DNA of 64,000 nt from Styela clava (Eukaryota): the NCBI RefSeq assembly GCF_964204865.1, contig NC_135254.1, positions 18,228,001-18,292,000 on the forward strand, in the 5' to 3' direction. The notes below the pieces were generated by a model that made no database searches, was not told where the DNA came from, and was given only the letters and a program-made list of their open reading frames with translations. Numbering within the stretch: position 1 is the first letter of the stretch; each line of letters begins with the position of its first letter. Of this stretch, positions 21,476 through 57,449 are shown one piece after another. A program made the translations under genes and the position numbers.

Positions 21476-21734
21476 TCAATTAGGCTTTCGTTTTTGAATT
21501 CTAACATTAATTCCTCCACCCGCTCTTAAAATTAATCCAGATATCACTTCCAACGATTCTGGTCTCTTGCAGGACTCTACAGAATATTCTCGTAATAAGT
21601 GAGCTAAAACTACTTTTTCTTCCATCATTGCAAACTTTTGTCCAATGCAGTTCCTAGGTCCAGCCGAGAACGGAAGATATGCATATGGATGTCTCCCGAC
21701 ACTGTTTTCCGCATTGAATCTTTCTGGATCAAAA
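21476..21734 (-). CDS. CYP4V-like last exon (FDPERF...[10 protein letters not shown]...stop)
   Basis: Acceptor ttatag|T; heme-binding Cys motif; TGA at 21478-21476. Confidence 0.94.
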
Positions 21735-33700: not shown

Positions 33701-36700
33701 ACAGAATTGCAAATAAACGTAATAAATTATGCCGCAGTAACATCAAATGACAATATCCGTATCAAATGAGTTGTCATACAGTGTGTCCAAAAAGTCTGTT
33801 CACAATTTCAATTTTGTTATGAAGTCAGTTCTCATTATATCTTAACCATATTTTTTGATTTTTAATCAGTGATAATTTAAGTATTTTTCTTCATTTAATA
33901 CGTATGTGAGGGCCAAAACAATATATGGTATCGATAAGTTAAATTTCAAACATTTCAGGACTCAAGGACACCCGTATATATTGAAATATGAAAAAGACTG
34001 CGCCTCGCCAAGTTCGGGGGTTGAACAGATTATATATGTCGTTATACATTTCGAATAAAACTTTCATGTTACCGCCTCGCGCCATTTTGTAAAGTACAGT
34101 ATTCGATAGATGCTGAATCAGAAACAGAGCTACTGTACTACACAATTGCCAAGTTATGAATAACCGAATCGCCGTGACAGTGAACGACCAATCAAAGCGA
34201 CTGTATCATTTCATATTTGAAAAAAAGTATTTTAGTATATATAAAGTTCCTTAAAACTCTGTACTATTTGCTGGAGTGGAATGTGGTATTTCGTATTGAC
34301 GTTCACAAATACAATTCATTTTTTTTTATGTATGAGTATTCATATGTTCAAATTATAGGAATCTGACACTTGGTGGTAATTTCCGACGTTTTTACAAAGA
34401 CTAGAGCATGTTCTTTCATTCCGTCCGGTACATCGATTTTTTTATTTGAAGCCAATTATTCTGTCTGCACCCACGTCACTTGCTAATTTTTCAATGCTAT
34501 TTACTATGTCTCCTGCGGAAAATATCTTTATCTTCACATTAGTAGAATGAGCAGGCAGGCGATAGTCTAATAAATTTTCTTTATGTAAGACGCAATGTCT
34601 TGACAAACCTATTCTTCGCCACATCAAAAATCCAGTTCACAGTAATTTCATTCGCAATGACAAGAAAGGGGCATCATTTTCAAGAAGCCAATGATTGGTT
34701 GAGTTGTATGAATCACCCAAAATGTTCGTGGTGTTTGCATTCACATACATAGGCGAGAAAACTTTCTCAAGTATGAAGATTAGCACAAGCAAAAACAGAT
34801 GTCTTCTAAGGATTTAAATTTACAAATTGTCTTAAGAATCAGCACAATCTGCTTCGAGCCTAATTTAAACACGCTTTCGGACGCATGCAGTAGGCTACAT
34901 CAGTCCCATTATCCATTGTGCCACTAAATACACTGACTGTTTTTTATCCATAACTTCATTTTAAATTTGAGGCCTCTGGTTAAGTACCCGAGTCTATTAT
35001 CTGTAACTGGCCCACTCAGGAAAGTAATTCTCCACCACTGCAATGAATTGATTATTTTTGGCAAAATGGCGTAAGGCCCAAAATGCGATAGTCTTATTTA
35101 GTACGCTGCTAAGGGTGCGTATTCTTTGGCTTACATATTTGTATAAACTTTTTTTTTCTAAAACGGGCATCATGAAATCTCCTTATTTAGGGTTCTGACA
35201 GAAGATTACTTGGGAAATGGACTTAAAATTGCTAGCACTTCCATTGAAGCAAATTTATGGAAAAAGTTGTCGAAAAAGAGGTTGGCTGCAAATTTCTCAC
35301 TGAATTCATTCGGTGTGACAATTAATTTGAATAGCAGTTTTCTTAAGGCATTATTCGTCTTAACTCATTTTGTCCTGTACGTCAATATTTGTACTTGAAG
35401 CCAATTGTTCTGTCTGTACTCACGTCACTTGCTAATTTTCCAATGTTATTTACTATATTTCCTGCGGCCAATACCTATATCTTTACATTAGTAAAACGAG
35501 CAGGCAGGAAATTCACTAATAAATTTGCTTTATGTAAAACGCAATGTCTTGACAAACCTATCCCTCGCTACTTCAAAAGTCCAGTTCACAATAATTTCTT
35601 TCGTAATGACAGGAAAGACGCATCATTTTCAAGAATCGCTTGAAAAATAATCGTGGTGTTTGCATTCACACACAGAGGCGAGCAAACTTTCCCAAGTATG
35701 GAGACTGACAAAGGCAAAAACCCATGTCGTCTAAGAATTTAAACACACAAGCTACCTGCCTTAAAAAATCAGCACAAGCTGCTTTAAGCCTAATTTAAAC
35801 ACGCTTTCGGACGCATGCAGTAGGCTAGCGACATCAGTCCCATTAATCATTGTGCCACTTAATACACTAGCTGTTTGTCGTATTTCAATTAGCTGTTATT
35901 TATGAATAATTTATTTATCCATAATTTCATTTTGAATAGTTGAGTACCCAAGTCTATTTTCTGTAACTGGCCCACTCAAGAAAGTAATTCTTCACAACTG
36001 CTATAAATTGATCTTTTTTGGCAAAATGGCGTAGGGCCCAAAACGCGATAGTCTTATTTAGTACCTTGCTGAGGGTGCGTATTATTTGCTTGGCTATCAC
36101 ATATGTTGAATAAGAAAGTAAATGATCTGATTTACATCGCTTTCATGTAAAGAATTGTAAAGTATGAGAAACAGAATTGCAAATAAAAGTAATAAATTAT
36201 GCAGCTGTATCATCAATTGACAATATCCGTCTCAAATGAGTAGTCATACAGTGTGTCCAGAAAGTCCGTTCACAATTTCAATTTTGTTATGAAGTCAGTT
36301 ATCAATATATCTTAACCAGATTTTTTGTTTTTTATTCAGCGAGTTCAAGTATTCTTACTTCATTCAATATGTATGTGAGGGCCGAAACAATATATGGTAT
36401 CGATAAGTAAAATTTCAAACATTTTAAGACTCAAGAACACCCTATATAACGGAGTATGAAAAAGACTCGCCTCGCCAAGGAATTTACATTGAATTCCTTC
36501 TACTATGCATTGTGATCAAATTTTGGACTTAAAAAAGCTCTCGAAACTACCATAAATCATGGAATATGTAACGTCATCTAACTCAGAATAAACAATTTCA
36601 TAGTAAAATTCATTCACTTTTTTTCAATATCAAGCTAATGGGGTTTGGGCTGTTCAGAAAATTGGCACTTCAAAATTGAATTTGTTCTATTTAGAACTAT

Positions 36701-37207
36701 ATGAAATGCAATGGGTGATTGAATATTTATGCTAAATTTTTTCCAAATGCATATTATTTAATGATTGTACCTGAAATGAAATGTTGAAGTCAAAAGCCTT
36801 CTTCTTGATTTCCACTTTTCTCCAGATGACGTTAGAAGACCAGTTGCAAGCCAAGGTTGAAGAAATTTATATACCATAGACTTCTTAGTATGTTGTGAAC
36901 TATGGAGTAATGTTTCTGCGCTGTTAGGGCCAAATATATAAACTACTGGAACCGATCCCAAGCTGATAACTCCTATTTCATCACCCGAGGTTAAAGATCT
37001 TTCTCGCATGCCGTTCATATTTCTTTTGTATATTTCTTCTGATCTTCCAGTTAACACTAATGCCTGACCCAAGATTGGCCAGGTTTTGCCCTCAGGGCCC
37101 GAAATATTTTTAAAATGACTCCATTTTTTGCGATGTTTCTTTGTCAGAATTATTGACCAGCAAACACAAGCAAATGCAAGAGCTAATGTAATAATGCTCA
37201 TTTCCAT
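21476..37207 (-). CDS. CYP4V2: Cytochrome P450 clan 4 (CYP4V2-like), 6 coding exons: join(complement 36771..37207, 25523..25729, 23474..23757, 22982..23216, 22054..22146, 21476..21734), 504 aa
   Basis: Manual splicing gives a continuous 1515-nt frame with compatible intron phases. Motifs: N-terminal TM anchor, [29 protein letters not shown]-helix [14 protein letters not shown] (CYP4 signature), K-helix ECMR, DPERF, heme motif [14 protein letters not shown]. The subfamily label is by resemblance only. Confidence 0.93.
22054..22146 (-). CDS. CYP4V-like exon 5 ([31 protein letters not shown]), not in the ORF track in this frame
   Basis: 93-nt phase2-phase2 exon with acceptor tttaag|A and donor AG|GTAAAG. 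It supplies the expected DG..P.GT / ..P..WPD segment before PERF. Confidence 0.88.
22982..23216 (-). CDS. CYP4V-like exon 4 ([11 protein letters not shown]...[11 protein letters not shown]...KEC)
   Basis: Acceptor ttacag|GT completes FEGHDTT; donor GT|GTAAGC. Confidence 0.92.
23474..23757 (-). CDS. CYP4V-like exon 3 (SAAGLITKR...RLAFLDMLL...EEVDTFMFE)
   Basis: Acceptor tttttag|T; ends at the non-canonical donor G|GCAAGC. Confidence 0.9.
23664..24629. repeat. Tandem duplication (23664-24144 and 24149-24629, 485-bp period) spanning the CYP4 intron-2/exon-3 junction
   Basis: The two copies appear identical by eye, with a 4-nt filler TAAT at the junction. Confidence 0.93.
25523..25729 (-). CDS. 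CYP4V-like exon 2 ([13 protein letters not shown]...[13 protein letters not shown]...EYVKAIK)
   Basis: Acceptor acacag|C and donor AG|GTATTA; in frame with exons 1 and 3. Confidence 0.92.
25827..26685. mobile_element. Non-autonomous hAT element in CYP4 intron 1 with a transposase C-terminal remnant
   Basis: CAGGGGCGTGCC ... GGCATGCCACAG ends; 8-bp TSD GCTGTAGA/GCTGTAAA (7/8); minus-strand [11 protein letters not shown] near 26190-26225 (hAT dimerisation motif S.ERSFS). Confidence 0.78.
26810..36478. repeat. Higher-order tandem array in CYP4 intron 1: four ~2.5-kb units, each made of two diverged sub-units
   Basis: Marker TTACCGCCTCGCGCC at ~26829, 29328, 31836, 34069. Marker CGGACGCATGCAGTAG occurs eight times (~27641, 28614, 30135, 31088, 32374, 33329, 34878, 35808). 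Confidence 0.93.
29046..29234. mobile_element. Tc1/mariner-like MITE remnant, amplified once per array unit (also ~31546, 33779, 36249; partial at ~22246)
   Basis: TA|CAGTGTGTCC ... GGACACCCTA|TA imperfect TIRs. Confidence 0.45.
36771..37207 (-). CDS. CYP4V-like exon 1 ([12 protein letters not shown]...TSTFHF)
   Basis: Within ORF 36758..37306. ATG at 37207 precedes the hydrophobic anchor; donor AG|GTACAA at 36771/36770. Confidence 0.9.
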
Positions 37208-39171
37208 TTTGAATTGACCTGAAATGTATTTGTAAATATTAATTATACTGTTCAACATAAATCCTCCTGTGTATATCGGGTTATATATACCATGTCTATG
37301 TACCATTATTTGTTTGTTCTACAGATATATCTGGTATGATACCCAACAAATCAAATTTTACTTTTTTGTAACATTCTTTCATCTACTTGGTTGCTTTCAC
37401 TAAGTTCTCATTGTAATCTGACACACAAGACATTGATTGCTCTGGTAAATATATACCGTACAACAAGAAAATCCGGTAATGTTAAAATAAATTTTGCTGT
37501 CATTACTTTGAAGAATGTACATGTAGTTTGTAGAGTATATCATGTTGATACTTGCTGCCGAATATTTTTGCGGCGAATGCTTTGTAGAATCTCGCAACTC
37601 TCTTGAAATTAGGTTGCAATTGCTGAAAAACCCTAGTCCAATTTACAAACAAAAAAAATTGATGTCAATTTTTGTTGTATCTTTTTTATGAGTCCCAAGT
37701 CGAAATTAACTATGTCAAAGTTCAGAAAAAGGCGTTTACGGGTGTTAAATTCCGGGTTCAATATTTGCGTGCGAATCAAAATCCAAACTTTAACTTGTGC
37801 AAACATATTACATTTTATATAGATTGTGTGCGTTATAACCAGTTGTATGCAATCTAAACATTTGAATTAAGTTGGTAAAATTATGATTCAACTTTAAATA
37901 TTTGATTGGAATACATCAATTCACAACTTAATAAATTTTATTGTTAATATGAAAAATAAGATATTGAAATATTTTCAAAACGCGCCTCATACGAATGATG
38001 ATTATTTAAAATAAATGATTGGAAAATATTGCATTTTAGAAAACTGGAATAGTTATTCAAAATCATTTCCTAAATTTATGAACCTAAATAGAATGTGGCA
38101 CATACCCCTAAAATTATTATTTGTTTGAGATAAAGAAACAGAAAATGTGAAGCAGAAATTTCCCACATATATTTGTTGGAAATTTCTCATCAATTTAATG
38201 ATACATTTGAAAACGGACGTAAAAATAAACATTGCCCGCATCATAAAAAATGTGTGAAATTTGTTCTTTTGAAAACATATCGATTTAAAAAGAATTTCGG
38301 AATTCAACTGATTTTAAGAAATTTCTTCGATCAGGGAAATCGAGCATACGCACAGAAACATTTTTATGAGTTAAGTATGAAAAGCTAGCGCCAAAAAAAC
38401 GGTAAAAGAATTTTTATTGATTGCAGCATTGGTATAGCTTAACTAAGTAAAATGCGTTAACGATCCAAATTTTCAATTATTTCTCAAAGGAATTCCAAAC
38501 ATGACCAACTCATCGTGAAGGCAATGACAATTGAATAAGTTTCAAATCGCATCCGTGATATTTATACAGTTTTTTGCTAACTAAATCTACAATATAAAAC
38601 TGCTTGTATTTGGACTACAATTTTACATTGCAGTGTTCACAACCCTCCTTAATATTTCAGCGCATTCAACCCATCGATAAAACATATAAACGCGAGAACT
38701 TCTCGTAAACCATTACAAAATGAAGGTAATTCAGTTACTCGCTAATTTTCAGTTTAATATTAATTATTGAAAAATACTGAATATCTTGTAGTTTGTGGTA
38801 TTAAGATTTCTCGAATTAAATTAAACTGTATAAGTGTGAATGTGCCGCCTTATTATAATGTTGGATTCAATGCACCTATGCGCTAAAATCTATCTGAGCA
38901 AACCGTCAGTGCGCAGGTCCTTGGGGGTTAGATTACATATTCAAACAATAGCAGCTCTTTGTTATAGTTGATTGATAGTGACCCTAACGTATAAATATTC
39001 TTGTTATGAAAGGCGTTTAGATGCATATAAATAAAAAACAAACTATAGCAATTTTAGGTGCTTTCACATTCGTAAATTAATAACACGTGAGCAACATCAG
39101 AATTCATTTTTCCCAACTAGATTAGGTCTTTCATTGCGAGATGTTTTCATCTAGTTTTACATGGTGAAAAC

Positions 39172-39358
39172 GGTTCCATTACATTTGAACCCACGTACAT
39201 TTGAACCCATGACAATTGCACCTGTATGCTATTGCACCTGTGGAATTTTTTTTGTTTCACGGATAGTTAAACCCATACTAACCCTAACCCATGAGTTTTA
39301 GCACCCGCATATAGATTGAACCCGTGGATATACGCATGGGTTCAAATGTACGGTCACC
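39172..39358. mobile_element. Second copy of the MULE-like MITE, 9-bp TSD GGTGAAAAC
   Basis: Nearly identical to 3451-3653 (one subterminal repeat fewer); TSD at 39163-39171 and 39359-39367. Confidence 0.88.
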
Positions 39359-41466
39359 GGTGAAAACATATAGATGCTTCGTCTGAAATAATTAGTGTTG
39401 TCGATATAGCAGAACGTTACGAAACAATCCAATCAATTAATAGTTGTGTACTTTTGTATGTTTTTGTTCCGTCGCCACAAGTATGATTCAGCGACAAAAT
39501 TGAGTGTAGAAATTACGACAATTCGACGATAGATTATTTTAATCCCAGAACGAAAGATATAGACGGCTTACCTAATAAAAAGTCTCAAATTAAAAGAACA
39601 AATTAGAAAATAGAAGAAACACAAAACATGAAAATTTATCGGAAGACCAATGTTTTTTAATTGCCAGTGTAGGTCTTGCGTCCATAGAAATTGCTAATAA
39701 ATTTCAACGTTTTAGATCGCTTGTAAAAAATGTCGTAACAAAACGGGCATAACTCTACAATGACAAGAAAATAATGCTTGACATTGGTGGCAAGCACATT
39801 AATTGATCAAAACCACGAAACAAGATATCAGAACATTCTCAGTTTACCCTATAGTAGTATATTGGAGTCACGGCCTAATTCAACAACCCCCGAATGTATA
39901 TTGAATTTGAATGGAACAAACAAAACTGCGATTCGAAGAAGATTGGTTCGCAATAATACACAACATATCAGTGTTTGTCCCCCGATTCCCCCGGGTTGAC
40001 ATAAAGAGAGAAAACAAAAAAAAATGGTGCGACTGACGGAGCCCAAAAGTCTGGTATACCTAACTGTAACGGTTGACTTGCTGGTCTTTTCCAATTTTTG
40101 ATCTGCCACGGCATATTTTCAAGCGCCACATACAGTCAAGTTCTTCAGCGTTATGAGTGACTAGCTATTTCAGTGGTTAATTCGGCTGAGACTTGCAATT
40201 TTTTGGATGGTCCTCCTCAAGCGTAGAATAATATTCATTCAATATGATTATATTACAACAGGAGTGTTTAAACAATTTTGAAATTAATTAGCTTGACAAT
40301 GGACAATGCGTCATTTTTTCTGGACCACTGTTCGTTCATACGCATCGATGAGGACATGAAAATGTTCGTTACAAACAGACAAGATTTTCTCATCACTGTC
40401 TATGTAATTTTGCTTCTTTCTTGCTTTTATATTGTTTCAATTGTTTTTCTTTATTTCCTCACGGCGTTTTGTCCAAGCACTAAAAATCCCTAATATAAGT
40501 GCCTTAAGTAAAATTATCACAATATACCACGAACCAGCAACATTACGCTCTTCAAAATAAATATTGAACTAATACATTAAATACATTAGACAAACTATAA
40601 TATTACATCTCGTTGATAGATACAGTTATATAATGCAATATGGTATTGTACATACAATTTGCAAAACTCTCACGTCCATAGAAGTTGGATAACAGATTGA
40701 ATTCGATATTGTCTAAACTCTAAATCAAACTGTCGATTTATGTCTATTTAAAATACGAAAATCATAATACATTGCTATGCTACACTTTTGAGCAATTTCG
40801 TATTACTTTATACACAGATAATTGAGATTAATTAAAAAAATTGCTTGATTCTTACTGATAAATAGATATTATATAAAACTGAGCGTCCAGACAATGCTTC
40901 AAATCTCGCTAATATTTAAATTGCCACAAGTCTTATTTCTACTTCAACCAATTGCGCATGTTAATATATCCTATAATCATTTCCTTAGCTTATTTTACAA
41001 GGACTATAACCGAAATAACTTCGAATAAGCCGGCCCTATGGTTCAATTCTCAGGCCAGTTATCAAAATCACACCTTTACCTTCAATATATTTTCAGCAGC
41101 ACTATCTGCGCAAAACCTGGTCACACCGCCTAGCAAGTGTCTCACAACTCAACCAAAGTATAGTCTTTACAAATGACTGCTCAAATATAACCCTACGGTA
41201 TCAATAAATAAATAAAAAAAGAAGCAGACCATCGTTTTCATCCATCTTACAATTGTGGTAATGTAGAGAAAAGCTTACTGATATCTTACATGAAAAATCC
41301 TTTGCAAATTTAAAGGAGACGAACAAAAAATTGCATTAAGGTTTGAACAAGGCGCTTTCTAAATTTCCGTCCTAGTCCGATTGCACACTTTACAATAACT
41401 GGACAACATATCTGGTTAATTGGTTTGAATAATTTATCAGACAATAATTTCTGTGAAGGTATTAAC

Positions 41467-41628
41467 AAATTAGAATAACATAATCTCTTTCCAAGAAATA
41501 TCAAGTATATTAGTAAGCTTTCGTTTGATCATAGTCTAACTTTTTCAGACAAAACAAGATATGGCTTAATCAAACAGCTCACAAATATACTTGCTATTTC
41601 GTGGAAAGAGATTATGTTCTTCTTATTT
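41467..41628. repeat. Imperfect ~160-bp palindrome (long hairpin)
   Basis: AACATAATCTCTTTCCAAGAAATATCAAGTATATTAGTAAGC pairs with GCTCACAAATATACTTGCTATTTCGTGGAAAGAGATTATGTT. Confidence 0.8.
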
Positions 41629-42148
41629 ATCTTTATAATACTATCTCGTTCAAGCATCCTTATGGCAGTTGACACATACGGATCTGAAGTAGAAAGTAAA
41701 CAAGAAGAACGGACTTGCAGTTCAGTACAAAATACCCTAGTATACTAAATACATTTATTCGCTGATCTGTGGTTTCATATTCACTTCTGGGTCTCCGTTA
41801 CTGGTAAGATTATGATTCACCAAAAACGGCTATAAAATATTGTTTTAAATTCTTCTGTTTAAATAATACACTATCTGTGCGAAGCTTTGCTTTTCCGAGG
41901 ATTGAACGAAACTTACGCATTATGTTTACTCAAGTGTGTCTACCCAGTGTGTTTAGCTTTCTTGGCATGATATATTGAAGGAAATTGCTACGTGGTTATT
42001 TTGAATAGCATTAGACAAATTAGACATTTTGAATAGCATTAGACAAAATTTTCGCTGCATATTAAAAAATCTACAAATATGGTACCCAATATGGTGTTGC
42101 CTTTATCTGAATGCATGATTATGTAAGTAGTAGTATAGGTCGGATTCG

Positions 42149-42859
42149 ATACCCAAATAATGTTGCACATGTTGAGCAAATGTTGATCAATGATGCAAAT
42201 GTTGAGCAATACCCAAATAATGTTGCACATGTTGAGCAAATGTTGATCAATGATGCAAATGTTGAGCAATGGTGGTACGTAGGAAGTTGTTATGTAATAT
42301 TGTTTCCGGTATCAGGGGATAGCGTTTGGTAATTTTCGAAAACCATACCCAAATAATGTTGCACATGTTGAGCAAATGTTGATCAATGATGCAAATGTTG
42401 AGCAATACCCAAATAATGTTGCACATGTTGAGCAAATGTTGATCAATGATGCAAATGTTGAGCAATACCCAAATAATGTTGCACATGTTGAGCAAATGTT
42501 GATCAATGATGCAAATGTTGAGCAATGGTGGTACGTAGGAAGTTGTTATGTAATATTGTTTCCGGTATCAGGGGATAGCGTTTGGTAATTTTCGAAAACC
42601 ATACCCAAATAATGTTGCACATGTTGAGCAAATGTTGATCAATGATGCAAATGTTGAGCAATACCCAAATAATGTTGCACATGTTGAGCAAATGTTGATC
42701 AATGATGCAAATGTTGAGCAATACCCAAATAATGTTGCACATGTTGAGCAAATGTTGATCAATGATGCAAATGTTGAGCAATGGTGGTACGTAGGAAGTT
42801 GTTATGTAATATTGTTTCCGGTATCAGGGGATAGCGTTTGGTAATTTTCGAAAACCATA
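42149..42859 (+). repeat. Subterminal hierarchical tandem array: 60-bp unit x(2,3,3), each block followed by an identical 76-bp linker (256-bp higher-order period)
   Basis: Unit ATACCCAAATAATGTTGCACATGTTGAGCAAATGTTGATCAATGATGCAAATGTTGAGCA; the same ORFs recur every 256 bp in the track. Confidence 0.95.
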
Positions 42860-44423
42860 TCGGCAACCGTGTGTTAGTCATTAAGTTTATGGTTTGTCGT
42901 ATATTTACATGCACCTATGGAATTTTTTTGTTTTTGTTTACGTACATTTGAACTCATGTGTTGTTTTTGATAATTTGTGAATGTAATCAGCATTTCAAGT
43001 ACATGTACCCACACTACTTGCATTTTGAAATTTGGATTTCATCAATATTACGTAAGTCAGTACGTATATGTGAGTATTATACGTCAGCGAAACATGACTG
43101 TATTCCTCATAGCAATGCTCGTATTAGAAGTGAATAAGATATGATTTATTTGATTAGCTTTTATCATTGGCAGCTTTCGTTTATGTTCTTTAGCTTCCCA
43201 AATGTGTTAGTCATTAAATTTATGGTATATTTTGTATGTGTTTATATATTAGAGTATTGAGCAATATATATGAGGGTTTAAATCTTCTTTTTTGAGCCGA
43301 GTGATGCAGAGTGGTAATTTATTTCGTGTTTAGGAAATCATGCAATGTCGTAGTTAAGTTTTGTGCATCTGTTGATTGGAAACAACCATAAGGATGTACT
43401 GACTTTAGTAGAAAAATGACAACTGAGTTGACATAATTAAATTCAAAAAACGTATGTTTACTGACCGACGTATGTTAAAATAATTGAAAAACGATTGTTA
43501 TTGGAGGTTTAGCGAGAAATAAAATGCAACAGGCTGCGCATCGGTTTGAAAAAAAAAATTACAATATAAAACAGCTGACAAAAAAAAAGGTCGTGTTTCC
43601 CGGTCTAGTCGTTTGATTTGTTTTTTTTTTACAGTTGTTTATTTTTTTTTTCATTACTCTTTTATTTTCGGTTTATTTTTGATCTTGAAAATTTTATTTT
43701 TTTTAAATTTTTTTTTTTTTTTTCAATTTTACAAGAAATCGATAGTTTGACATATTATTTACCACAGAGATTCTTTTTCACAGACTTTACTGTTGTTTTT
43801 GATAATTTGCGAATGCAATCAGCATTTCGAGTACATGTACCCACACTACTTGCATTTTGAAATTTGGATTTCATCAATATCACGTAAGTCAGTACGTATA
43901 TGTGAGTATTATACGTCAGCGAAACATGACTGTATTCCTCATATCAATGCTCGCAAGTAGATTGTTCTTCCTCGTATTAGAAGTGAATAAGATATGATTT
44001 ATTTGATTAGCTTTTATCATTGACAGCTTTCGTTTATGTTTTTTAGCTTCCCAAATAGGCAACCCTAGTGATTGTCCTACATTCCCCAGATGTGATGCCA
44101 GACTTCAATACCTAACTTCGGTAAAATTGTCTTTGAATATTCAAAAAATGGTATATTTATCAGTGTAGAGTAGATGGTCTGTCATATACATAACACATTT
44201 TTATAAGTTGCAAATAGTTTCATCGCTATTGGCAAAATATTTACCACCCTCTAAATTTCGAAACACAACCCCCCCCAATAATGAAAATATATATATATCA
44301 ATGGAGCATGGTAGCCAGAATAATGATATCATAATGGATGGGAAGCAGATAATAATATTTAACAAAGGTTACCAAAGTAAACAAGATCCGAAAATGATAT
44401 AAATATATTAGTACAATGTCATA

Positions 44424-45320
44424 TTACCGTAGAAGTTTTTTGTTGATAATTTCCCATACCATGGCTCGCCGAAAGTAAGGCATATCTCGCTGGGAAAATG
44501 TTAAGTCTGATTTAGAAGTAATATACTCTGCAAATTTGCAAGCAAAGACTCCACAATCTGATCCATTCATTTGTTGCGGTATATCAGACATTGACAACAG
44601 TTGCCAGTCAGAAAGATTGATCTCTGATCCTTTTTTATCCTTGTGCTCACAAAGAAGATAATTTTTTAGGATTTCAAGGCATTCCCGATTGGCTCCACCC
44701 ATTGAATCATAATATCTTATTTGTTTCGATATGAAATCAACGACAGCTAGACACCAATGCACGCCAAGATGTATTGGATACAGAACGATGTCTTTGGAAA
44801 ATATATCAACTTTTTTTGTCCACCGACGTACTGATGTATAAGATTGTGTACTCAATCGAGGATAAAAGAATGTATTCATGGAATGTACTGCGGGGTAATC
44901 TTTTACATCTTTAGAGCGCTGAACAATCAATTCCATATAAAAATTTATAATTTCATCATTAAGCCAATTTAGACCGAACAAAGTCGACATGTGCTCGCGG
45001 GTTATTGAAATGTTGAAACACTCAGAAAGGACTTGATTTGGAGGATATGGAACTAGTGCTTTGTTTATGTGTTCGCTCATGTCGGAAGTCAGCTCAGGAA
45101 GTGTGGGTTGTTCGATAATCTTTTTTTCTTGGAGTTTTAATTTGTTGTGTAAAATTTCAGCCAGAAGTGCATCTTTCTCTTTACGTTTCTCGTGCCAAAG
45201 TCGGGCTCGTGTTTCTTCAGCACGTGTTTGAGCTTGCCTCTGACGAACTCGACGATTGTATGTTTTTAACATGTCAGGAACGAAATTTTGTGACAAATAT
45301 GGAGAAGAAAACTCTTTCAA
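44424..45320 (-). CDS. SENP1: SENP1/2-like SUMO-specific protease (Ulp1 / peptidase C48 catalytic domain), copy 1; first ATG at 45272 (282 aa)
   Basis: WLNDEIINFYM, NTFFY, HLGVHWCLAVVDF (catalytic His), YYDSMG (Asp), PQQMNGSDCGVFAC (oxyanion Gln and Cys), MPYFRRAMVWEI; uninterrupted frame. The ORF-track start is TTG. Confidence 0.92.
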   Translation of the reverse strand: MKEFSSPYLSQNFVPDMLKTYNRRVRQRQAQTRAEETRARLWHEKRKEKDALLAEILHNKLKLQEKKIIEQPTLPELTSDMSEHINKALVPYPPNQVLSECFNISITREHMSTLFGLNWLNDEIINFYMELIVQRSKDVKDYPAVHSMNTFFYPRLSTQSYTSVRRWTKKVDIFSKDIVLYPIHLGVHWCLAVVDFISKQIRYYDSMGGANRECLEILKNYLLCEHKDKKGSEINLSDWQLLSMSDIPQQMNGSDCGVFACKFAEYITSKSDLTFSQRDMPYFRRAMVWEIINKKLLR

Positions 45321-48300
45321 AATCTGGCTTCTCTTTATACTATCATTGAGAGTGGTTTCTGTTTGACTTTCGGCACCCCGAAGGACTAAGTTGTATATAC
45401 TTATCGCTTTGTGTAAAAACTTTCACTTGAATCGTTTTTTATTTTAATTTTTAAATTTTCACGTCATTGGACGCGAAATGGACGTGTCCTTTGTCCTGTC
45501 CGATATCCATTTTGTTATTGTGCTATTGTTGTAGTCGGAATTCTTCTTTTTGTTGTGAAAAAAAAAATCGCGTTTCTCATTAACTACAAGACCAATTGCT
45601 TTTGCTTTGATTAGTTTCAAAGACTTGTGTGGTCTTTATGGAATTATTCATTCCAAAATTTTTAACTCTTAACTATATGCACATATATACTTGAGTTTTT
45701 ACACCAACTTCATCTTGCAGTCAAGCGAAAAATTACAGCTTATAATTAGAGAAAAATAAATTAGTTTTTAAAATTTTTGATAAACAAAACACACTTCTCT
45801 CATTTTTAACATCCATAATTCAGTATTCATCAAAAAATAAACGAAGAATCTAATTATATTGCAAAACTTCCACGCCAGAAGGACCAAATAATATATACTT
45901 ATGAGAAATGCTTCGCGTCAGCATCTTTGTTTTGAATTGTTTTTTATTTCAATTTTGGAACTTCATTTTATTGGACACGATATGTACCTATAATTGCTTT
46001 CTTTTTCATGTTATTGTTACGTTATTGTTGGTGTAATTTCACTTTTTGTCGCTTTTCTCTATCTATGGAACCAATTGCTTTGAATTTTGCATTGGGTAAA
46101 GATTGTTGTACTCTAATTAATTTAAAAAACTGTTGTGGGCTATATGGAATTTATTTTTCATTTCAAAATTTAAAAAAAATGCGTCAGTCTGCCGATACTG
46201 TACGATTATGATGCTATTTCATTTTAGCTTTCGTGTCCATATATTGAAGCATTGATTTTTTGTTTTTATAAGAGCAAGCAAGGCCATGCGCACCAACTCA
46301 GGAGTAAAGGAGACTGACCTCGATACATTGTACGAGTTAAAAATAAAATCTCCGGCAAATGTTGTTCTTATGTCATAAAAAAAAAACTTGAGCACATTGA
46401 TTATTCGACAAAATCGAATTTAATGAACAACCCCAGCAAAATCAGAACCAATATATCCTAGAAAATTTTCTGTCAGGGTTTTTTGACGTTGGCAAGATAT
46501 AGAGATTTGAATTATACGTTTTTTTTTACTAAAATCGCGGCATTGGGCCTTTCAGCAAATCTTACGATGGAAATTTTGGACTTGCAGAATATTAAGGAAT
46601 ATGCAACGTAGAGTGTTCTATTCACTGTAAACATCACAAAGATAGAAACTATACTCATCAAATAAACTGTCGTAAGTTCAATTATTATTCGTTTTCATAC
46701 GTTTTCTGTGTACGTAACTAATCAGTAGAGTAAATCCACATCTTGCAATCAAACTTGATTCTAAAAATATAAAAAATATGATTTGTCTCAGTATTATTCC
46801 GTAGATGCAAATGTATTTGGTGTACTTGCTTCTGAATCTACTTATTTTGGGGATTGCACTCAATACAGCATTCCACTTTTTAGATGTATATATTCGCTTT
46901 TAACAAACTTTGAAGTCAAAGAGATTTCAAAAAATTAGTCTTAAGTGACCACTAACTGTATGCAAAAAAAAAATTATTTTTTAAAGGCACAAGTTGATAT
47001 GGTATCACAAGAAGACTTGAATATTTTTTGTCTGGAACGATTATGAAAAACGCAAAATGATAAATCGCTGATAAGAACACACTTCGGATTGAAAGTGCGC
47101 TACCGGTAAAGTTTTCTCGGATAGGATACGGTCGAACGAAAACTTTTAACTTACCCTTACTGGTATTTTTACGCAGGAACGTAGCAAAGTTGAAAATGTG
47201 TAATATTAAGCTGTGATTAAAGAGAATTGTTATTGCACATATACTAAAACAAAAAACACTCACTTGATCCTGTTGATTGCACCTCGGACGTAATTTTGGT
47301 AATGCGTACCTAATTCTGTACTTGAATGCACTGGAAAATGGAACCGTTTCAGACCAATGTACAGTTGTGCTTCGCTGATTGAAATTATTGAGATGATTTT
47401 AATAATATATCTGTCTTAAGGCTACCATAATAACAGAAACAAGAGAGCAATTCCCAAATATATGTACACGTTAACCAGAGCGAAGCAATGCTTACCTTTG
47501 ACGCTACCGGTACCCTCCAACAATTTCCGAGTTACTCGTAGCAAGAATTTACAGTATCTAACTGGACAGCCAGAGTTCCCATGTATAAAATAATACAGCG
47601 AAATTTTGGACGAAATATCAGACTTCATACGAAATTTAGACATAAAGAAAAGTAATAGCCTTCTGGCAAAAAATCAATCTTTACCCACTGAAAATTTTAA
47701 AGCCATTGTCCAAGTATTCGAAGAGAGAAGCTATTTTTAATGATAATGATGACGAATAACAAGAACAACAACAACATAATATCGAAACAATCGCTATGTC
47801 CATTAGCGTGTCCAAAAACAAAGACATTGTAAGAAAGGTAAGGTTTGTTTTTTCGTCCGGGTGTCAACGGATCGTGAAAGTACTACATCGAGTTACTCGT
47901 GGCGTCAAATTTAATACCCATTCGAAAACCAATGTTCTTTTCCTTAGCTACTGGACTAAACGCTTTCGAAATATCAGATGTTGAATATAGTGTCATCCTC
48001 TAAAAAAATTCACTTTCCTTTTAAAATAAATCATCAGGACTTCCCGTGCTCATTGTAACCCCACATATTGTTTTAAGTTGAACTACGGCGTGGTTTTTCC
48101 GATGAGCCAATTTTCCGAGCAAGTATTAAAAATAGAACAATATAACAGAGTTGAACGATGATTTAGCAAAACTTTCCACAGGTTTATTCATGTTCAATAG
48201 GCTACTGAGATGACAACGTTCATTTAGTTACAATAGCTCACTTTCATTGCATATTGCATTAAATGTTTCGTTTTATCATCTGAAAGAGAGACCGCTTTCT

Positions 48301-48528
48301 TTGCGCCAGGCATCGTTATAAATATCAACTTTTTTACGGTATTCAAAACTTCGTGAAGAGCCTGAGAACCAAAAATAAAATGGCAAGTTGGTATCAAAAT
48401 TACCTTGACAACGAACGTTCATTATGATTATTATAATATAAAATTAATGATATCGTGGTAAGGACATTTTCTAAAGTCTAAACTATACATTGTCAGTAAT
48501 CATAATTACATACCAATCAGTTCTTATT

Positions 48529-48748
48529 GGTGACAGCACATTTGAACCCACGTACATTTGCACCCGTACATTTGCACCCACCGACATTTGCATCCCGGAC
48601 ATTTGAACCCCCGTACATTTGCACCCACCGACATTTGCATCCCGGACATTTGCACCCCGGACATTTGCACCCCGGACAATTGCACCTACATACTATTGCA
48701 CCTATGGAATTTTTTTTTGTTTTTGTTTACGTACATTTGAACTCATGT
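48529..48748 (+). mobile_element. Truncated left end of a MULE-like element (ACATTTG[A/C]ACCC subterminal repeats) in the palindrome spacer
   Basis: GGTGACAGCACATTTGAACCCACGTACATTTG... resembles the termini and subterminal repeats of the MITEs at 3451 and 39172. It stops at the right-arm junction. Confidence 0.7.
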
Positions 48749-50908
48749 TCTGGTTAACGTGTACATATATTTGGGAATTGCTCTCTTGTTTCTGTTATTA
48801 TGGTAGCCTTAAGACAGATATATTATTAAAATCATCTCAATAATTTCAATCAGCGAAGCACAACTGTACATTGGTCTGAAACGGTTCCATTTTCCAGTGC
48901 ATTCAAGTACAGAATTAGGTACGCATTACCAAAATTACGTCCGAGGTGCAATCAACAGGATCAAGTGAGTGTTTTTTGTTTTAGTATATGTGCAATAACA
49001 ATTCTCTTTAATCACAGCTTAATATTACACATTTTCAACTTTGCTACGTTCCTGCGTAAAAATACCAGTAAGGGTAAGTTAAAAGTTTTCGTTCGACCGT
49101 ATCCTATCCGAGAAAACTTTACCGGTAGCGCACTTTCAATCCGAAGTGTGTTCTTATCAGCGATTTATCATTTTGCGTTTTTCATAATCGTTCCAGACAA
49201 AAAATATTCAAGTCTTCTTGTGATACCATATCAACTTGTGCCTTTAAAAAATAATTTTTTTTTTTGCATACAGTTAGTGGTCACTTAAGACTAATTTTTT
49301 GTAATCTCTTTGACTTCAAAGTTTGTTAAAAGCGAATATATACATCTAAAAAGTGGAATGCTGTATTGAGTGCAATCCCCAAAATAAGTAGATTCAGAAG
49401 CAAGTACACCAAATACATTTGCATCTACGGAATAATACTGAGACAAATCATATTTTTTATATTTTTAGAATCAAGTTTGATTGCAAGATGTGGATTTACT
49501 CTACTGATTAGTTACGTACACAGAAAACGTATGAAAACGAATAATAATTGAACTTACGACAGTTTATTTGATGAGTATAGTTTCTATCTTTGTGATGTTT
49601 ACAGTGAATAGAACACTCTACGTTGCATATTCCTTAATATTCTGCAAGTCCAAAATTTCCATCGTAAGATTTGCTGAAAGGCCCAATGCCGCGATTTTAG
49701 TAAAAAAAAACGTATAATTCAAATCTCTATATCTTGCCAACGTCAAAAAACCCTGACAGAAAATTTTCTAGGATATATTGGTTCTGATTTTGCTGGGGTT
49801 GTTCATTAAATTCGATTTTGTCGAATAATCAATGTGCTCAAGTTTTTTTTTTATGACATAAGAACAACATTTGCCGGAGATTTTATTTTTAACTCGTACA
49901 ATGTATCGAGGTCAGTCTCCTTTACTCCTGAGTTGGTGCGCATGGCCTTGCTTGCTCTTATAAAAACAAAAAATCAATGCTTCAATATATGGACACGAAA
50001 GCTAAAATGAAATAGCATCATAATCGTACAGTATCGGCAGACTGACGCATTTTTTTTAAATTTTGAAATGAAAAATAAATTCCATATAGCCCACAACAGT
50101 TTTTTAAATTAATTAGAGTACAACAATCTTTACCCAATGCAAAATTCAAAGCAATTGGTTCCATAGATAGAGAAAAGCGACAAAAAGTGAAATTACACCA
50201 ACAATAACGTAACAATAACATGAAAAAGAAAGCAATTATAGGTACATATCGTGTCCAATAAAATGAAGTTCCAAAATTGAAATAAAAAACAATTCAAAAC
50301 AAAGATGCTGACGCGAAGCATTTCTCATAAGTATATATTATTTGGTCCTTCTGGCGTGGAAGTTTTGCAATATAATTAGATTCTTCGTTTATTTTTTGAT
50401 GAATACTGAATTATGGATGTTAAAAATGAGAGAAGTGTGTTTTGTTTATCAAAAATTTTAAAAACTAATTTATTTTTCTCTAATTATAAGCTGTAATTTT
50501 TCGCTTGACTGCAAGATGAAGTTGGTGTAAAAACTCAAGTATATATGTGCATATAGTTAAGAGTTAAAAATTTTGGAATGAATAATTCCATAAAGACCAC
50601 ACAAGTCTTTGAAACTAATCAAAGCAAAAGCAATTGGTCTTGTAGTTAATGAGAAACGCGATTTTTTTTTTCACAACAAAAAGAAGAATTCCGACTACAA
50701 CAATAGCACAATAACAAAATGGATATCGGACAGGACAAAGGACACGTCCATTTCGCGTCCAATGACGTGAAAATTTAAAAATTAAAATAAAAAACGATTC
50801 AAGTGAAAGTTTTTACACAAAGCGATAAGTATATACAACTTAGTCCTTCGGGGTGCCGAAAGTCAAACAGAAACCACTCTCAATGATAGTATAAAGAGAA
50901 GCCAGATT

Positions 50909-51805
50909 TTGAAAGAGTTTTCTTCTCCATATTTGTCACAAAATTTCGTTCCTGACATGTTAAAAACATACAATCGTCGAGTTCGTCAGAGGCAAGCTCA
51001 AACACGTGCTGAAGAAACACGAGCCCGACTTTGGCACGAGAAACGTAAAGAGAAAGATGCACTTCTGGCTGAAATTTTACACAACAAATTAAAACTCCAA
51101 GAAAAAAAGATTATCGAACAACCCACACTTCCTGAGCTGACTTCCGACATGAGCGAACACATAAACAAAGCACTAGTTCCATATCCTCCAAATCAAGTCC
51201 TTTCTGAGTGTTTCAACATTTCAATAACCCGCGAGCACATGTCGACTTTGTTCGGTCTAAATTGGCTTAATGATGAAATTATAAATTTTTATATGGAATT
51301 GATTGTTCAGCGCTCTAAAGATGTAAAAGATTACCCCGCAGTACATTCCATGAATACATTCTTTTATCCTCGATTGAGTACACAATCTTATACATCAGTA
51401 CGTCGGTGGACAAAAAAAGTTGATATATTTTCCAAAGACATCGTTCTGTATCCAATACATCTTGGCGTGCATTGGTGTCTAGCTGTCGTTGATTTCATAT
51501 CGAAACAAATAAGATATTATGATTCAATGGGTGGAGCCAATCGGGAATGCCTTGAAATCCTAAAAAATTATCTTCTTTGTGAGCACAAGGATAAAAAAGG
51601 ATCAGAGATCAATCTTTCTGACTGGCAACTGTTGTCAATGTCTGATATACCGCAACAAATGAATGGATCAGATTGTGGAGTCTTTGCTTGCAAATTTGCA
51701 GAGTATATTACTTCTAAATCAGACTTAACATTTTCCCAGCGAGATATGCCTTACTTTCGGCGAGCCATGGTATGGGAAATTATCAACAAAAAACTTCTAC
51801 GGTAA
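50909..51805 (+). CDS. SENP1: SENP1/2-like SUMO-specific protease (Ulp1 / peptidase C48 catalytic domain), copy 2; first ATG at 50957 (282 aa)
   Basis: Translation identical to copy 1, with the full His-Asp-Cys triad. Confidence 0.92.
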   Translation: MKEFSSPYLSQNFVPDMLKTYNRRVRQRQAQTRAEETRARLWHEKRKEKDALLAEILHNKLKLQEKKIIEQPTLPELTSDMSEHINKALVPYPPNQVLSECFNISITREHMSTLFGLNWLNDEIINFYMELIVQRSKDVKDYPAVHSMNTFFYPRLSTQSYTSVRRWTKKVDIFSKDIVLYPIHLGVHWCLAVVDFISKQIRYYDSMGGANRECLEILKNYLLCEHKDKKGSEINLSDWQLLSMSDIPQQMNGSDCGVFACKFAEYITSKSDLTFSQRDMPYFRRAMVWEIINKKLLR

Positions 51806-53370
51806 TATGACATTGTACTAATATATTTATATCATTTTCGGATCTTGTTTACTTTGGTAACCTTTGTTAAATATTATTATCTGCTTCCCATCCATTATGA
51901 TATCATTATTCTGGCTACCATGCTCCATTGATATATATATATTTTCATTATTGGGGGGGGTTGTGTTTCGAAATTTAGAGGGTGGTAAATATTTTGCCAA
52001 TAGCGATGAAACTATTTGCAACTTATAAAAATGTGTTATGTATATGACAGACCATCTACTCTACACTGATAAATATACCATTTTTTGAATATTCAAAGAC
52101 AATTTTACCGAAGTTAGGTATTGAAGTCTGGCATCACATCTGGGGAATGTAGGACAATCACTAGGGTTGCCTATTTGGGAAGCTAAAAAACATAAACGAA
52201 AGCTGTCAATGATAAAAGCTAATCAAATAAATCATATCTTATTCACTTCTAATACGAGGAAGAACAATCTACTTGCGAGCATTGATATGAGGAATACAGT
52301 CATGTTTCGCTGACGTATAATACTCACATATACGTACTGACTTACGTGATATTGATGAAATCCAAATTTCAAAATGCAAGTAGTGTGGGTACATGTACTC
52401 GAAATGCTGATTGCATTCGCAAATTATCAAAAACAACAGTAAAGTCTGTGAAAAAGAATCTCTGTGGTAAATAATATGTCGAACTATCGATTTCTTGTAA
52501 AATTGAAAAAAAAAAAAAAAATTTAAAAAAAATAAAATTTTCAAGATCAAAAATAAACCGAAAATAAAAGAGTAATGAAAAAAAAAATAAACAACTGTAA
52601 AAAAAAAAACAAATCAAACGACTAGACCGGGAAACACGACCTTTTTTTTTGTCAGCTGTTTTATATTGTAATTTTTTTTTTCAAACCGATGCGCAGCCTG
52701 TTGCATTTTATTTCTCGCTAAACCTCCAATAACAATCGTTTTTCAATTATTTTAACATACGTCGGTCAGTAAACATACGTTTTTTGAATTTAATTATGTC
52801 AACTCAGTTGTCATTTTTCTACTAAAGTCAGTACATCCTTATGGTTGTTTCCAATCAACAGATGCACAAAACTTAACTACGACATTGCATGATTTCCTAA
52901 ACACGAAATAAATTACCACTCTGCATCACTCGGCTCAAAAAAGAAGATTTAAACCCTCATATATATTGCTCAATACTCTAATATATAAACACATACAAAA
53001 TATACCATAAATTTAATGACTAACACATTTGGGAAGCTAAAGAACATAAACGAAAGCTGCCAATGATAAAAGCTAATCAAATAAATCATATCTTATTCAC
53101 TTCTAATACGAGCATTGCTATGAGGAATACAGTCATGTTTCGCTGACGTATAATACTCACATATACGTACTGACTTACGTAATATTGATGAAATCCAAAT
53201 TTCAAAATGCAAGTAGTGTGGGTACATGTACTTGAAATGCTGATTGCATTCACAAATTATCAAAAACAACACATGAGTTCAAATGTACGTAAACAAAAAC
53301 AAAAAAATTCCATAGGTGCATGTAAATATACGACAAACCATAAACTTAATGACTAACACACGGTTGCCGA

Positions 53371-54081
53371 TATGGTTTTCGAAAATTACCAAACGCTATC
53401 CCCTGATACCGGAAACAATATTACATAACAACTTCCTACGTACCACCATTGCTCAACATTTGCATCATTGATCAACATTTGCTCAACATGTGCAACATTA
53501 TTTGGGTATTGCTCAACATTTGCATCATTGATCAACATTTGCTCAACATGTGCAACATTATTTGGGTATTGCTCAACATTTGCATCATTGATCAACATTT
53601 GCTCAACATGTGCAACATTATTTGGGTATGGTTTTCGAAAATTACCAAACGCTATCCCCTGATACCGGAAACAATATTACATAACAACTTCCTACGTACC
53701 ACCATTGCTCAACATTTGCATCATTGATCAACATTTGCTCAACATGTGCAACATTATTTGGGTATTGCTCAACATTTGCATCATTGATCAACATTTGCTC
53801 AACATGTGCAACATTATTTGGGTATTGCTCAACATTTGCATCATTGATCAACATTTGCTCAACATGTGCAACATTATTTGGGTATGGTTTTCGAAAATTA
53901 CCAAACGCTATCCCCTGATACCGGAAACAATATTACATAACAACTTCCTACGTACCACCATTGCTCAACATTTGCATCATTGATCAACATTTGCTCAACA
54001 TGTGCAACATTATTTGGGTATTGCTCAACATTTGCATCATTGATCAACATTTGCTCAACATGTGCAACATTATTTGGGTAT
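53371..54081 (-). repeat. Mirror copy of the subterminal 60/256-bp array
   Basis: Exact reverse complement with the same copy numbers. Confidence 0.95.
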
Positions 54082-55322
54082 CGAATCCGACCTATACTAC
54101 TACTTATGTACCAACCAATTAAAATTTAGATGGTTTTAATCTATTAAACAAAGAAACACCCACTAATACCAAGTGGCACTAGATGCATTTCATTTCTATA
54201 TTACTTGCCGTTTGCGAAAGATCTCAGATTTGAATTTATTTATTGTGTTCAGAAAACTCGACGTTTTCTTTTCTCTGCCGCATGGCATAGGCACATAAAT
54301 TTAATGTTTAATATACATCACATAAAGTACTAAAATACCTTTTTTGTTAATTCATTGCCCAACTCTCTGTTATTTCTTTATGGCCACCCCATAAATCGTT
54401 TGCTTGCATCAGCCATTCGCATTCGCCCATGCTTAAGTGGCATATCTTACGAAAGCAAAATGCTGTTATCCAGTAATAACGGCGACAAAAAATAAACAGT
54501 CGGAATTGTAAGCGTCACTGCGCGTGGTTCCCACTGCCGACGAGGAATTTACAAGCACCACGGCAAATAGTCGAACGGATAATATTATAACGAGGTTCTC
54601 GAACTAATCTTAAGTTGCGATTGTTATGCATCGAAGGAAGAGAGTATCACCGATCACATGGATTTGTAGAAGCACGCCACATGACATAAATTTTACAATG
54701 AGGTATTTATGTAAAATGGCAATCTATCTGTTTGCTCTTCCATTCCCATATTATTTAGCGAGATTTGCACCATTTGTCACAAATTTACGATGTCATTCGA
54801 TTTATGCACGTTTGGAACCGAAACCTCTTTTTGGTAAATAATAACGGTAACTGTAATTTAGACAGTAAATAGGCGTGCTCAGTTTTACATTTCAATTTAT
54901 TAGTCTATGGACGGGTTTACCCTTTTGTAGAGTTCCGGTTATCGACGCGTATTTTTCTTATATATGAATAATAACTAATCTACAATACGTTCGCCATGGA
55001 TCGAATGGCTTACCTATATGTATCAATAACATGTTGACGACAAACACCTGTAACGTAAACAATATATTGTGCAATTCGACCTTGTATCAAAATTATGTGC
55101 TAATTCGCACTTTATTTAGAGAATTGTGATAGATGATTTTGTAGGATGAATGGTATACTTTAACCCATTGCTTAAACATCGCTGATACTATTTTCTATGT
55201 TTGCAAAAAATTAGAAATTATTTCTTTAAAAAACTTTTGTTTTTATTTCATATTCGAGAATAGGAGCGTTCATTAATGCTATTTAAAAAAAAATTATCTT
55301 TTCGTGTTCTTTGGTAGTTGCC

Positions 55323-55890
55323 TAATTATTTCAAATAGTTTTTCATTGGAAAATGAGTGGTTAGCATGTGATTGACTTCAGAGTTTGTCGCAAAACACTT
55401 AAAATTTTGTGCTTTCGGAACCAGTCAACAATATTTGACAATGACATGTTACATACATCGTCCTGTTGTTGAAACGATAAGCCAATGGGAATCAGGAGTC
55501 CAAGCAACGCCCACCAATTCTAGGCTCGCGACTCTGATTCAATTGAATTTTTATAGAACAAGGCGAATGTGGCTTGTATCATTTAATTGGCGGTATTTGA
55601 TTTCTAAATTTTGTGAGTTGCATAATTATTTCAAATAGTTTTTCATTGGAAAATGAGTGGTTAGCATGTGATTGACTTCAGAGTTTGTCGCAAAACACAT
55701 AAAATTTTGGGCTTTCGGAACCAGTCAATATTTGACATGTTACATACATCGTCCTGTTGTTGAAACGATAAGCCAACGGGAATCAGGAGTCCAAGCAACG
55801 CCCACCAATTCTAGGCTCGCGACTCTGTTTCAATTGAATTTTTATAGAACAAGGCGAATGTGGTTGTACCATTTAATTGGCGGTATTTAT
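55323..55890 (+). repeat. Two-copy tandem duplication, 300-bp period
   Basis: TAATTATTTCAAATAGTTTTTCATTGG at 55323 and 55623; paired ORFs 55372 and 55672. Confidence 0.9.
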
Positions 55891-57449
55891 TGTCTAACCC
55901 GCCATATTTGGCGCACGTCGCAGAAGTCACTTTCCTGACGCCATCTGTATTTGTAAATCAAATATTTGTTTCGTCATAATCATTTACTTCATGAAATCCG
56001 CAAACACTGTGTTTTGGAACATGTTTTGGCATAGCACAAAGCAACATCGAAATCACGAGAATCCGACCCAACATATGTTTGTTTTAAACATGGAAATTTT
56101 TGAATTGAACAGAACATTAAAATATATTTTTTTTTTAGAAATAAATTTTGAAATTATTCAATTTTAGGTTTGTACTCAACGGCTCATTGTTAAATACAAA
56201 ATTGGATATTGGTATTTATTTTTAAAGAAGCAATCACATAGGTTTTCCGAATATTGCAACTCATAAAATATCAACCTCGGAACGGAACGGAACACTCTAT
56301 TCTGAAGCGCACTTTTCATGAAATGAACGTGATCATAGCAACATCAAACTGATTATTTATAAGCTTATTTATGTTGAACACACGAAGATAGTGCAACCAA
56401 TCAGGCAATCACAAAGATATATTCTTCATCTAGCGCAGTCATCGCACTAATATGTTGCTGATACAAGACCATGCCAAATCTTCTACTCCCGATATGTATA
56501 CCAAATATATCACTTGTTGTCCCAATAGTGACAATATGTAGCATTTGTATCGGGTGTATGAGAAGAAGTACTTTCATCCTCCATAATTCCGTTACCAAAC
56601 ACAATACGAGGATCATATGTAAGCAATATACCTTGCACCTCTGGTATACCATAAATGCGCATTTACCGAATTCAGCTTTTATACATGCGCATGCCTTGAC
56701 TGATGGAAAAGGGAATTCTGTTATTTTTTTAATCCAAGTTCACTGGATACTGGAAATTGCTGTTGAAAATGACACATTTAGCTTCTTTCTCCGACATGAT
56801 TTTTGAAGGATATTTATTGTTATACCTTTATATGTGATATACTTAATCAAGCTTTTGCGTTTATTTCCGTTCGTCTTAAATTCAAAGGTAACTTCTTTCA
56901 GTTGTCAATTGTGGGAATTTTGTAACGTAAGGGGCCAATGTTGAGACGGACAAGCACATGAATTCTGCACAGACTCGACATGGTTGAGTAGCTACGGTCT
57001 ATAGCTATAATCTTTCGACTTTGATACCATCATGCTGTTCGGCACCCTTTGAGCTGGTTGGTGGGTTCAAAAATGCATTGGTTCAATTAGAGAAACCTTT
57101 TACTTAAAAATGCAGTTCGAGAGTTATGTCGAAGCAATGCCATAACCATAAGGTGCTTACTTATTGACAATATTTGAATACAAGTAGACATAGTAATATA
57201 AGCACACAAAGGGAACATTTCGAAGATGAGAAAAAATTTCAGTTTGTGATTCAACCATATTTGGTATTCATTTCTGAATTCGACCGATCAGGTTTGGTAC
57301 AGACAACAGGGTGTCTCAAAAATGTCGTGTCCCACTTATCCCACGTGACCCACTTGTACCACAGGTCCCGTGTCACACTTGTTCCATGTGTCACACTTAT
57401 CCCACTTGTCCGGTACTCATCCGATATTGATGCCTTGTGATATTGAAGC

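Follow-up and report, generated by a model that had tools for sequence, protein, structure and literature searches.

The 64,000-nucleotide stretch of Styela clava DNA analyzed here (the window) contains a large palindrome, which we interpret as a snapback-shaped, non-autonomous Maverick, reduced to its cis-acting ends and filled in its interior with host DNA. The whole element measures 11,979 bp (42126-54104), its ends read (AGT)n // (ACT)n, and two arms in inverted orientation make up 89% of its length: a left arm of 5,354 bp on the plus strand (42126-47479) and, on the minus strand, a right arm of 5,356 bp (48749-54104), an inverted copy of the former. The left arm is probably the template and the right arm the derived one. 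Between them lies a spacer, or loop, of 1,269 bp (47480-48748), composed of non-coding host-like DNA. Self-comparison with BLAST yields a single inverted alignment, 42124-47479 versus 54106-48749, with 99.907% identity over 5,358 columns (3 mismatches, 2 gaps, E = 0.0); an inverted repeat of 5.35 kb with this E value is beyond any chance level, and a chance origin is excluded. The inverted match extends 2 nt beyond the element, into the 6-bp TSD. One palindromic copy is seen in the 64-kb window.

A global alignment of the two arms reproduces all the differences listed in the original prediction, i.e. three substitutions (42984/53246, 43748/52481 and 46927/49302) and two homopolymer indels of 1 nt each (after 43620 and after 46963), as well as the abrupt inner edges of arm identity at 47479 and 48749. 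With 3/5,354 substitutions, arm divergence amounts to 0.056% (95% interval 0.012-0.16%). Equal copy numbers of the tandem arrays at both ends had also been claimed, and this is confirmed: the two ends agree in all of their terminal 755 nt, with eight exact 60-mers (2+3+3) per side. The left subterminal array (42149-42859, plus strand) is built of 256-bp units made of identical 60-mers, and its mirror (53371-54081, minus strand) matches it in copy number. This array is the probable original TIR region. Given that it stops at 42859, and that vertebrate Maverick TIRs measure 46-1,447 bp (PMC8097293), a progenitor TIR of about 0.75 kb is plausible.

A cytochrome P450 gene has exons on the minus strand (21476-21805, 22978-23289, 23436-23786 and 36758-37318), and the element is situated about 4.8 kb upstream of the 5'-most of these. 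This gene houses a tandem array (26807-36479) of about 2.2-2.5-kb units that are 87-97% identical and contain an internal repeat of 720-750 bp. A 485-bp tandem duplication with 100% identical copies (23664-24629) overlaps a P450 exon ORF and represents either a recent duplication or an assembly artefact. Further repeats of the window are an imperfect palindrome of 162 bp (41467-41628; 79%), which precedes the element by 500 bp, a 291-bp tandem pair (93%; 55316-55897), a 31-bp minisatellite with about 21 copies (57769-58435), and a dispersed 1.4-kb direct repeat of 82% identity (1382-2806 versus 15511-16965; 158-548 versus 15116-15507).

The ends of the element place it very probably among the Mavericks (Polintons). 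It is flanked by the two plus-strand copies of a 6-bp TSD (TATGTA; 42120-42125 and 54105-54110). When 12 symmetric boundary settings were scanned, the longest direct repeat was 6 bp, for an element at 42126-54104; readings with a TA or a 9-bp TSD were set aside in favor of this one, and so was a MULE foldback element, which would call for a TSD of 9 bp. Any two positions picked at random in the window have the same 6-mer at a frequency of 5.4e-4, so that over the 12 boundary settings a TSD would arise by chance in fewer than about 1% of cases. The element starts with AGTAGTAGTA and ends with TACTACTACT, and the 8-mer that opens it is present, within the window, at its two ends alone. For vertebrate Mavericks, (AGT)2//(ACT)2 is reported as the commonest end motif, with TSDs of 6 bp, and the TIRs of 134 intact elements range from 46 to 1,447 bp (PMC8097293). 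Our element has the 6-bp TSD, the end motif (AGT)2//(ACT)2 (the alternative being (AG)3//(CT)3) and long TIRs, the latter lying above that range with 5,354 and 5,356 bp. Because the Maverick end motif occurs together with a 6-bp TSD, we regard the element as a real insertion, integrated in a Maverick-like manner. Protein-primed replication, which the original prediction had assumed as the context, fits these ends.

No Maverick proteins were found. When six frames of 42126-48748 were searched against Pfam, with stops as X, only one of the six matched, and it matched Peptidase_C48 alone; ORFs for pPolB, integrase, ATPase, protease and capsid are absent from the element, which is hence not an autonomous Maverick. 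A PHROGs search of six frames of 45423-48748 returned one weak match on MITE repeats (E 0.0032), and Rfam gave no match over 41000-55000. An ORF of 148/152 aa (46952-47398 / 48830-49288) belongs to no Pfam family and was taken as a chance frame. The idea of a defective viral genome finds no support here: there is no Maverick gene or remnant, and since the interior is host-like throughout, with host repeats and a host gene fragment, we see a cargo-filled non-autonomous element rather than a viral genome with a recognizable truncation.

According to its sequence, the interior appears to be host DNA, consisting of old dispersed repeats and a SENP1 fragment. The only long ORF near the palindrome is 98% identical to the Styela clava sentrin-specific protease 1-like protein, and tunicate proteins are among the next matches. 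It corresponds to a 5'-truncated, intronless SENP1-like copy on the minus strand (44424-45377; mirror copy on the plus strand, 50852-51805), which covers residues 180-496 of the host protein P0001 with 317 uninterrupted codons and 2 differences. For host residues 1-175 of P0001, the window contains no match at E<=1. The catalytic domain is complete (Pfam E 1.2e-43), its His, Asp, Gln and Cys motifs could be located, and the cargo matches solved SENP1 over the full length (E 4.5e-83); from the first in-frame ATG (45272), the predicted product would have 282 aa and include the whole Peptidase_C48 domain. An open frame is expected even without selection, because the host gene differs by just 2 changes. 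Downstream of the stop, on the same minus strand, follow a probable 3' UTR (43726-44423) and, 700 nt past the stop, an A-rich tract (43610-43725) that is a possible poly(A) remnant; no canonical poly(A) signal is present 10-35 nt upstream of this tract, and no clear TSD surrounds the SENP1 insert. The 5' break at 45377 adjoins a decayed host repeat. An intron boundary at this break was considered and rejected, as no AG precedes codon 180 and the repeat homology reaches the break. The cargo, recently captured and 5'-truncated, is probably a retrocopy. That the palindrome doubles the dose of SENP1, as had been proposed, finds no support in a cargo that lacks host residues 1-179; we infer that the doubled SENP1 is a passenger.

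Two decayed dispersed host repeats occupy the plus strand at 45377-46266 (about 45377-45661 and 45875-46266) and share 57-62% identity with each other and with copies at 10.1-10.4 kb and 17.7-18.1 kb. A third copy of the dispersed repeat is found in the spacer, on the minus strand (47573-47817; nhmmer E 1.2e-12 and 2.8e-10), together with the left part of a MITE on the plus strand (48529-48748), which is cut about half-way at the inner junction. The spacer is thus not unique, contrary to its earlier description: it holds these two host repeat fragments, and each arm contains a further copy of the 52 nt at its end (48697-48748), the left arm at 42910-42959 and the right arm at 53271-53320. Two intact relatives of the MITE (3451-3653 and 39172-39358) are 98.9% identical over 180 nt and have perfect 9-bp TSDs. 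They show GG...CC termini and subterminal repeats, and we take them to be MULE-like on account of the length of their TSDs.

It is this MITE that gives the palindrome a direction. Its copy in the spacer is collinear with an intact one to about position 105/203 and halts no more than 3 nt from 48748. Neither the right end of the MITE nor a second copy of its 9-nt left flank (the second TSD) is found in the element; the intact 3' half matched only the left-end repeats in the spacer and, weakly, 48730-48770 (E 0.11). The truncation of the MITE at 48748 shows that the junction 48748|48749 is derived and that the copy is the right arm, and the original prediction that one end was rebuilt from the other holds. 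By elimination only, 47479|47480 is the parental junction; no repeat spans it. At the derived junction, a search for microhomology or a priming repeat matched at 0 of 11 lengths. A hairpin stall at the break was rejected as a candidate (z = +1.40; 94 of 100 shuffles fold equally well). In its architecture, the element has one end doubled in inverted order around a loop and a single derived junction, with the break in the MITE at 48748 and the rejoining at 47479, as in copy-back or snapback genomes. Since the junction is devoid of microhomology, template switching is indistinguishable from end-joining or chromosomal conversion. Of the proposed copy-back defective genome, the asymmetric snapback shape is borne out, and the template switch is a candidate beside end-joining, which fits such a junction equally well.

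A patchwork insertion within the arm (42870-43203, plus strand; mirrored at 53027-53360) bears on the age of the palindrome. It starts with a 24-nt duplicate of 43203-43226, followed by 42910-42959 and 42959-43203. The middle segment is a copy of the spacer end 48697-48748 and terminates on the last nucleotide of the spacer; by a simple count, the chance that a random 52-nt source ends so near an inner boundary is about 0.0015. The joint of this 48748 type has an overlap of 0-1 nt. The last segment is a copy of 43791-44056, with 7 substitutions in 245 nt (about 3%) and a 21-nt indel. A 7-mer shared by 42863-42869 and 44058-44064 adjoins either end of the jump by which the patchwork is closed and is not retained at the joint. 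The difference between patchwork copy and donor (7/245 sites) and that between the arms (3/5,354) are clearly distinct (Fisher p = 3e-8). If the template of the patchwork lay in the element itself and was copied no earlier than the break, the palindrome would be far older than the identity of its arms suggests, with the arms since homogenised; if it was sourced from another allele or family member, as could be the case, this age argument fails. The comparison suggests that the palindrome is older than the 0.06% arm divergence and has been kept identical by homogenisation. The earlier statement that either the event is very recent or the arms are homogenised can hence be narrowed: the patchwork (~3%) set against the arms (0.06%) leans towards homogenisation and away from a very recent origin.

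A search for shorter relatives of the cargo protein retrieved 68 proteins, only one of which is from S. clava (P0121, 168 aa, 99%). P0121 is located on a 20.3 Mb contig and P0001 on a 24.3 Mb contig. Both P0121 and the window copy have D where P0001 has N, and P0121 has one private change. Seven codons followed by GT on the minus strand (45988-46009) encode the first 7 residues of P0121 (0 of 3,000 shuffles) and link this gene model with the chimera. They start at 46009, about 1.1 kb upstream of the part of the arm that P0121 matches with its SENP1 portion; for the eighth residue, the window offers no explanation. On this basis, P0121 probably represents a further copy of the chimera, although it could also be the present locus in another assembly or haplotype. 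As a probable second site, the P0121 locus would indicate that the chimera unit has moved, not that it moved as a palindrome.

In protein-primed replication, as in adenovirus and PRD1, both ends of the linear molecule are origins. A molecule that has lost one end and regained an inverted second end is consequently what survives, and one without two origins would be lost. Most likely, the S. clava element is a gene-less Maverick passenger that was replicated and integrated by a helper. As the window shows, its precursor had the order left end, cargo, spacer and MITE and was interrupted inside the MITE at 48748, and the sequence beyond this position was replaced by an inverted copy running from 47479 back to the left end. 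We propose that the event occurred while a linear, extrachromosomal form was being replicated, with the aid of a helper, by protein-primed strand displacement; a homology-free polymerase jump (copy-back) appears only slightly preferable to end-joining. The insertion itself has a 6-bp TSD and Maverick end motifs but no Maverick genes, and panhandle repair may have reset the arms at each replication of the palindrome. We would accept this copy-back route on a helper-replicated, extrachromosomal Maverick derivative about as readily as we would doubt it. Panhandle-mediated restoration of homology is a standing model for adenovirus and PRD1, although panhandles are said to be without direct evidence even in these two systems (PMC11886824). 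For the asymmetric snapback genomes of AAV, it is argued that template switching does not explain them (PMC9463555).

The palindrome may instead have been assembled without a template switch, by end-joining of two broken left-end fragments (with ends at 47479 and 48748) from replicating extrachromosomal copies. The junction without microhomology and the overlap of only 0-1 nt at the 48748-type joint of the patchwork would be expected from such a process, to which the AAV asymmetric snapback genomes are indeed ascribed as NHEJ (PMC9463555). The reuse of the breakpoint in the arm insertion, however, seems easier to reconcile with a stall, or a template end, met repeatedly than with two breaks made independently, and we consider end-joining rather unlikely. 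Unlikely, too, is a chromosomal extension of the TIR, in which the left TIR served to repair a break in the right end, with copying that continued 4.6 kb inward, and in which gene conversion between the arms maintains their similarity. It has a parallel in Galileo, whose TIRs recruit internal sequence by break repair (38 of 170 copies are extended or recombinant; PMC3573991), it makes a helper unnecessary, and it is consistent with the single palindromic copy seen. Yet the TSD is perfect (6/6) and the arms are 99.9% identical, while the breakpoint seems older, and the probable second chimera locus shows that the unit has moved, though not that it did so as a palindrome.

An artefact of the assembly, caused by fold-back chimeric reads or by arms equalised through collapse and polishing, is very improbable. 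The extreme identity of the arms, the homopolymer indels among their differences (2 out of 5), the equally perfect 485-bp tandem elsewhere in the window, and array copy numbers that an assembler could have imposed might raise this suspicion. Unique flanks on both sides, the 6-bp TSD, Maverick ends and 3 true substitutions are, however, not what a fold-back chimera is expected to show, and at substitution 42984 the left arm departs from the donor state, which the right arm retains. Polishing may still understate the arm divergence. A foldback element from a cut-and-paste superfamily (MULE, Galileo/P or Tc1) with an Ulp1 domain is scarcely credible, for although foldback elements typically have long TIRs with internal repeats, Ulp1 domains are known from Ginger1 and Mutator elements (PMC2836005) and a 2-bp TA duplication is also present, the 6-bp TSD and (AGT)2 ends suit Mavericks (PMC8097293), the MITEs of the window give TSDs of 9 bp and Ginger1 those of 4 bp (PMC2836005), and the Ulp1 domain is that of the host's own SENP1 (98-99% identity) and not a transposase-linked one.

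An extension of the copy-back route goes further and is improbable in our view. There could be a satellite family of gene-less Mavericks which move as giant hairpins, with arm identity reset at each replication; the reused breakpoint would be a fossil of the panhandle intermediate, and SENP1 would be functional, either by weakening SUMO-dependent silencing as a stripped de-SUMOylase or by giving rise, on read-through, to a hairpin RNA of 1.6 kb that acts in trans to silence host SENP1.

A zebrafish non-autonomous Polinton, described by Kapitonov and Jurka in 2006, is reportedly largely palindromic, with multi-kb TIRs. With Mavericks in general, the S. clava element shares the (AGT)2//(ACT)2 ends, the 6-bp TSD, long TIRs and a size near the low end of 12.7-24.6 kb, but it is without core genes and its arms of 5.35 kb contrast with TIRs of 46-1,447 bp (PMC8097293). 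Polintons of butterflies are described with gene-containing TIRs of about 2 kb, and copies that lack polB and carry captured cargo remain mobile (bioRxiv 10.1101/2025.02.07.637071). Here as there, TIRs extend over genes, resulting in two copies per insertion; the butterfly elements, however, duplicate core genes and are mostly unique, whereas the S. clava element is 89% arm and duplicates a host fragment. Nematode Mavericks also carry host-derived cargo, in a 2-5 kb region beside the left TIR, but they keep their core genes, are not palindromic, and their cargo genes contain introns (bioRxiv 10.1101/2022.07.12.499685).

Outside the Mavericks, the closest resemblance in form is to AAV asymmetric snapback genomes, in which an end and its adjacent sequence are present twice, inverted around a loop, and which depend on a helper (PMC9463555); copy-back defective genomes of RNA viruses are alike in the inverted duplication of an end and in helper dependence. 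Unlike both, the S. clava element is integrated, heritable DNA with host cargo. Galileo, too, has TIRs with tandem arrays that were lengthened by one-sided recruitment of internal sequence, but it belongs to the P superfamily, moves by cut-and-paste, has other ends, and chromosomal repair has been proposed for it; the same paper mentions reports of TIR expansion in Polintons (PMC3573991). Ginger1 and Mutator resemble our element as DNA transposons bearing a SUMO-protease catalytic domain. In those transposons, however, the domain is native to many families, and fused to the transposase in Ginger1 (PMC2836005), whereas the S. clava element carries a truncated copy of host SENP1 that is nearly identical to the original and shows no sign of selection.

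No palindromic case is mentioned in the consulted parts of five further papers (PMC6431247, PMC11296320, PMC3014272, PMC8502044 and PMC5499653), one of which, on lizards, describes non-autonomous Polintons as apparently absent there. In the searched titles and abstract openings, neither a palindromic non-autonomous Maverick nor a Styela Maverick was found; subscription journals and Repbase are outside this scope, and absence is not implied. Precedent thus exists singly for the extension of TIRs, for gene-containing polinton TIRs, for Maverick cargo and for the capture of Ulp1. What sets the element apart is the combination of an 89% arm content, an all-host interior and a reused breakpoint.

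The element works like an asymmetric snapback genome, while its membership among the copy-back defective genomes is unproven. To our knowledge, Maverick replication has so far been inferred and never observed. A family with multi-kb arms offers a measurable test of it: if the arms are always closer within than between copies, and if the inner junction is common across loci, the ends would be rebuilt mutually during replication. The S. clava element provides an example of a virus-like element that is reduced to its ends and carries a fragment of a host SUMO-pathway gene.
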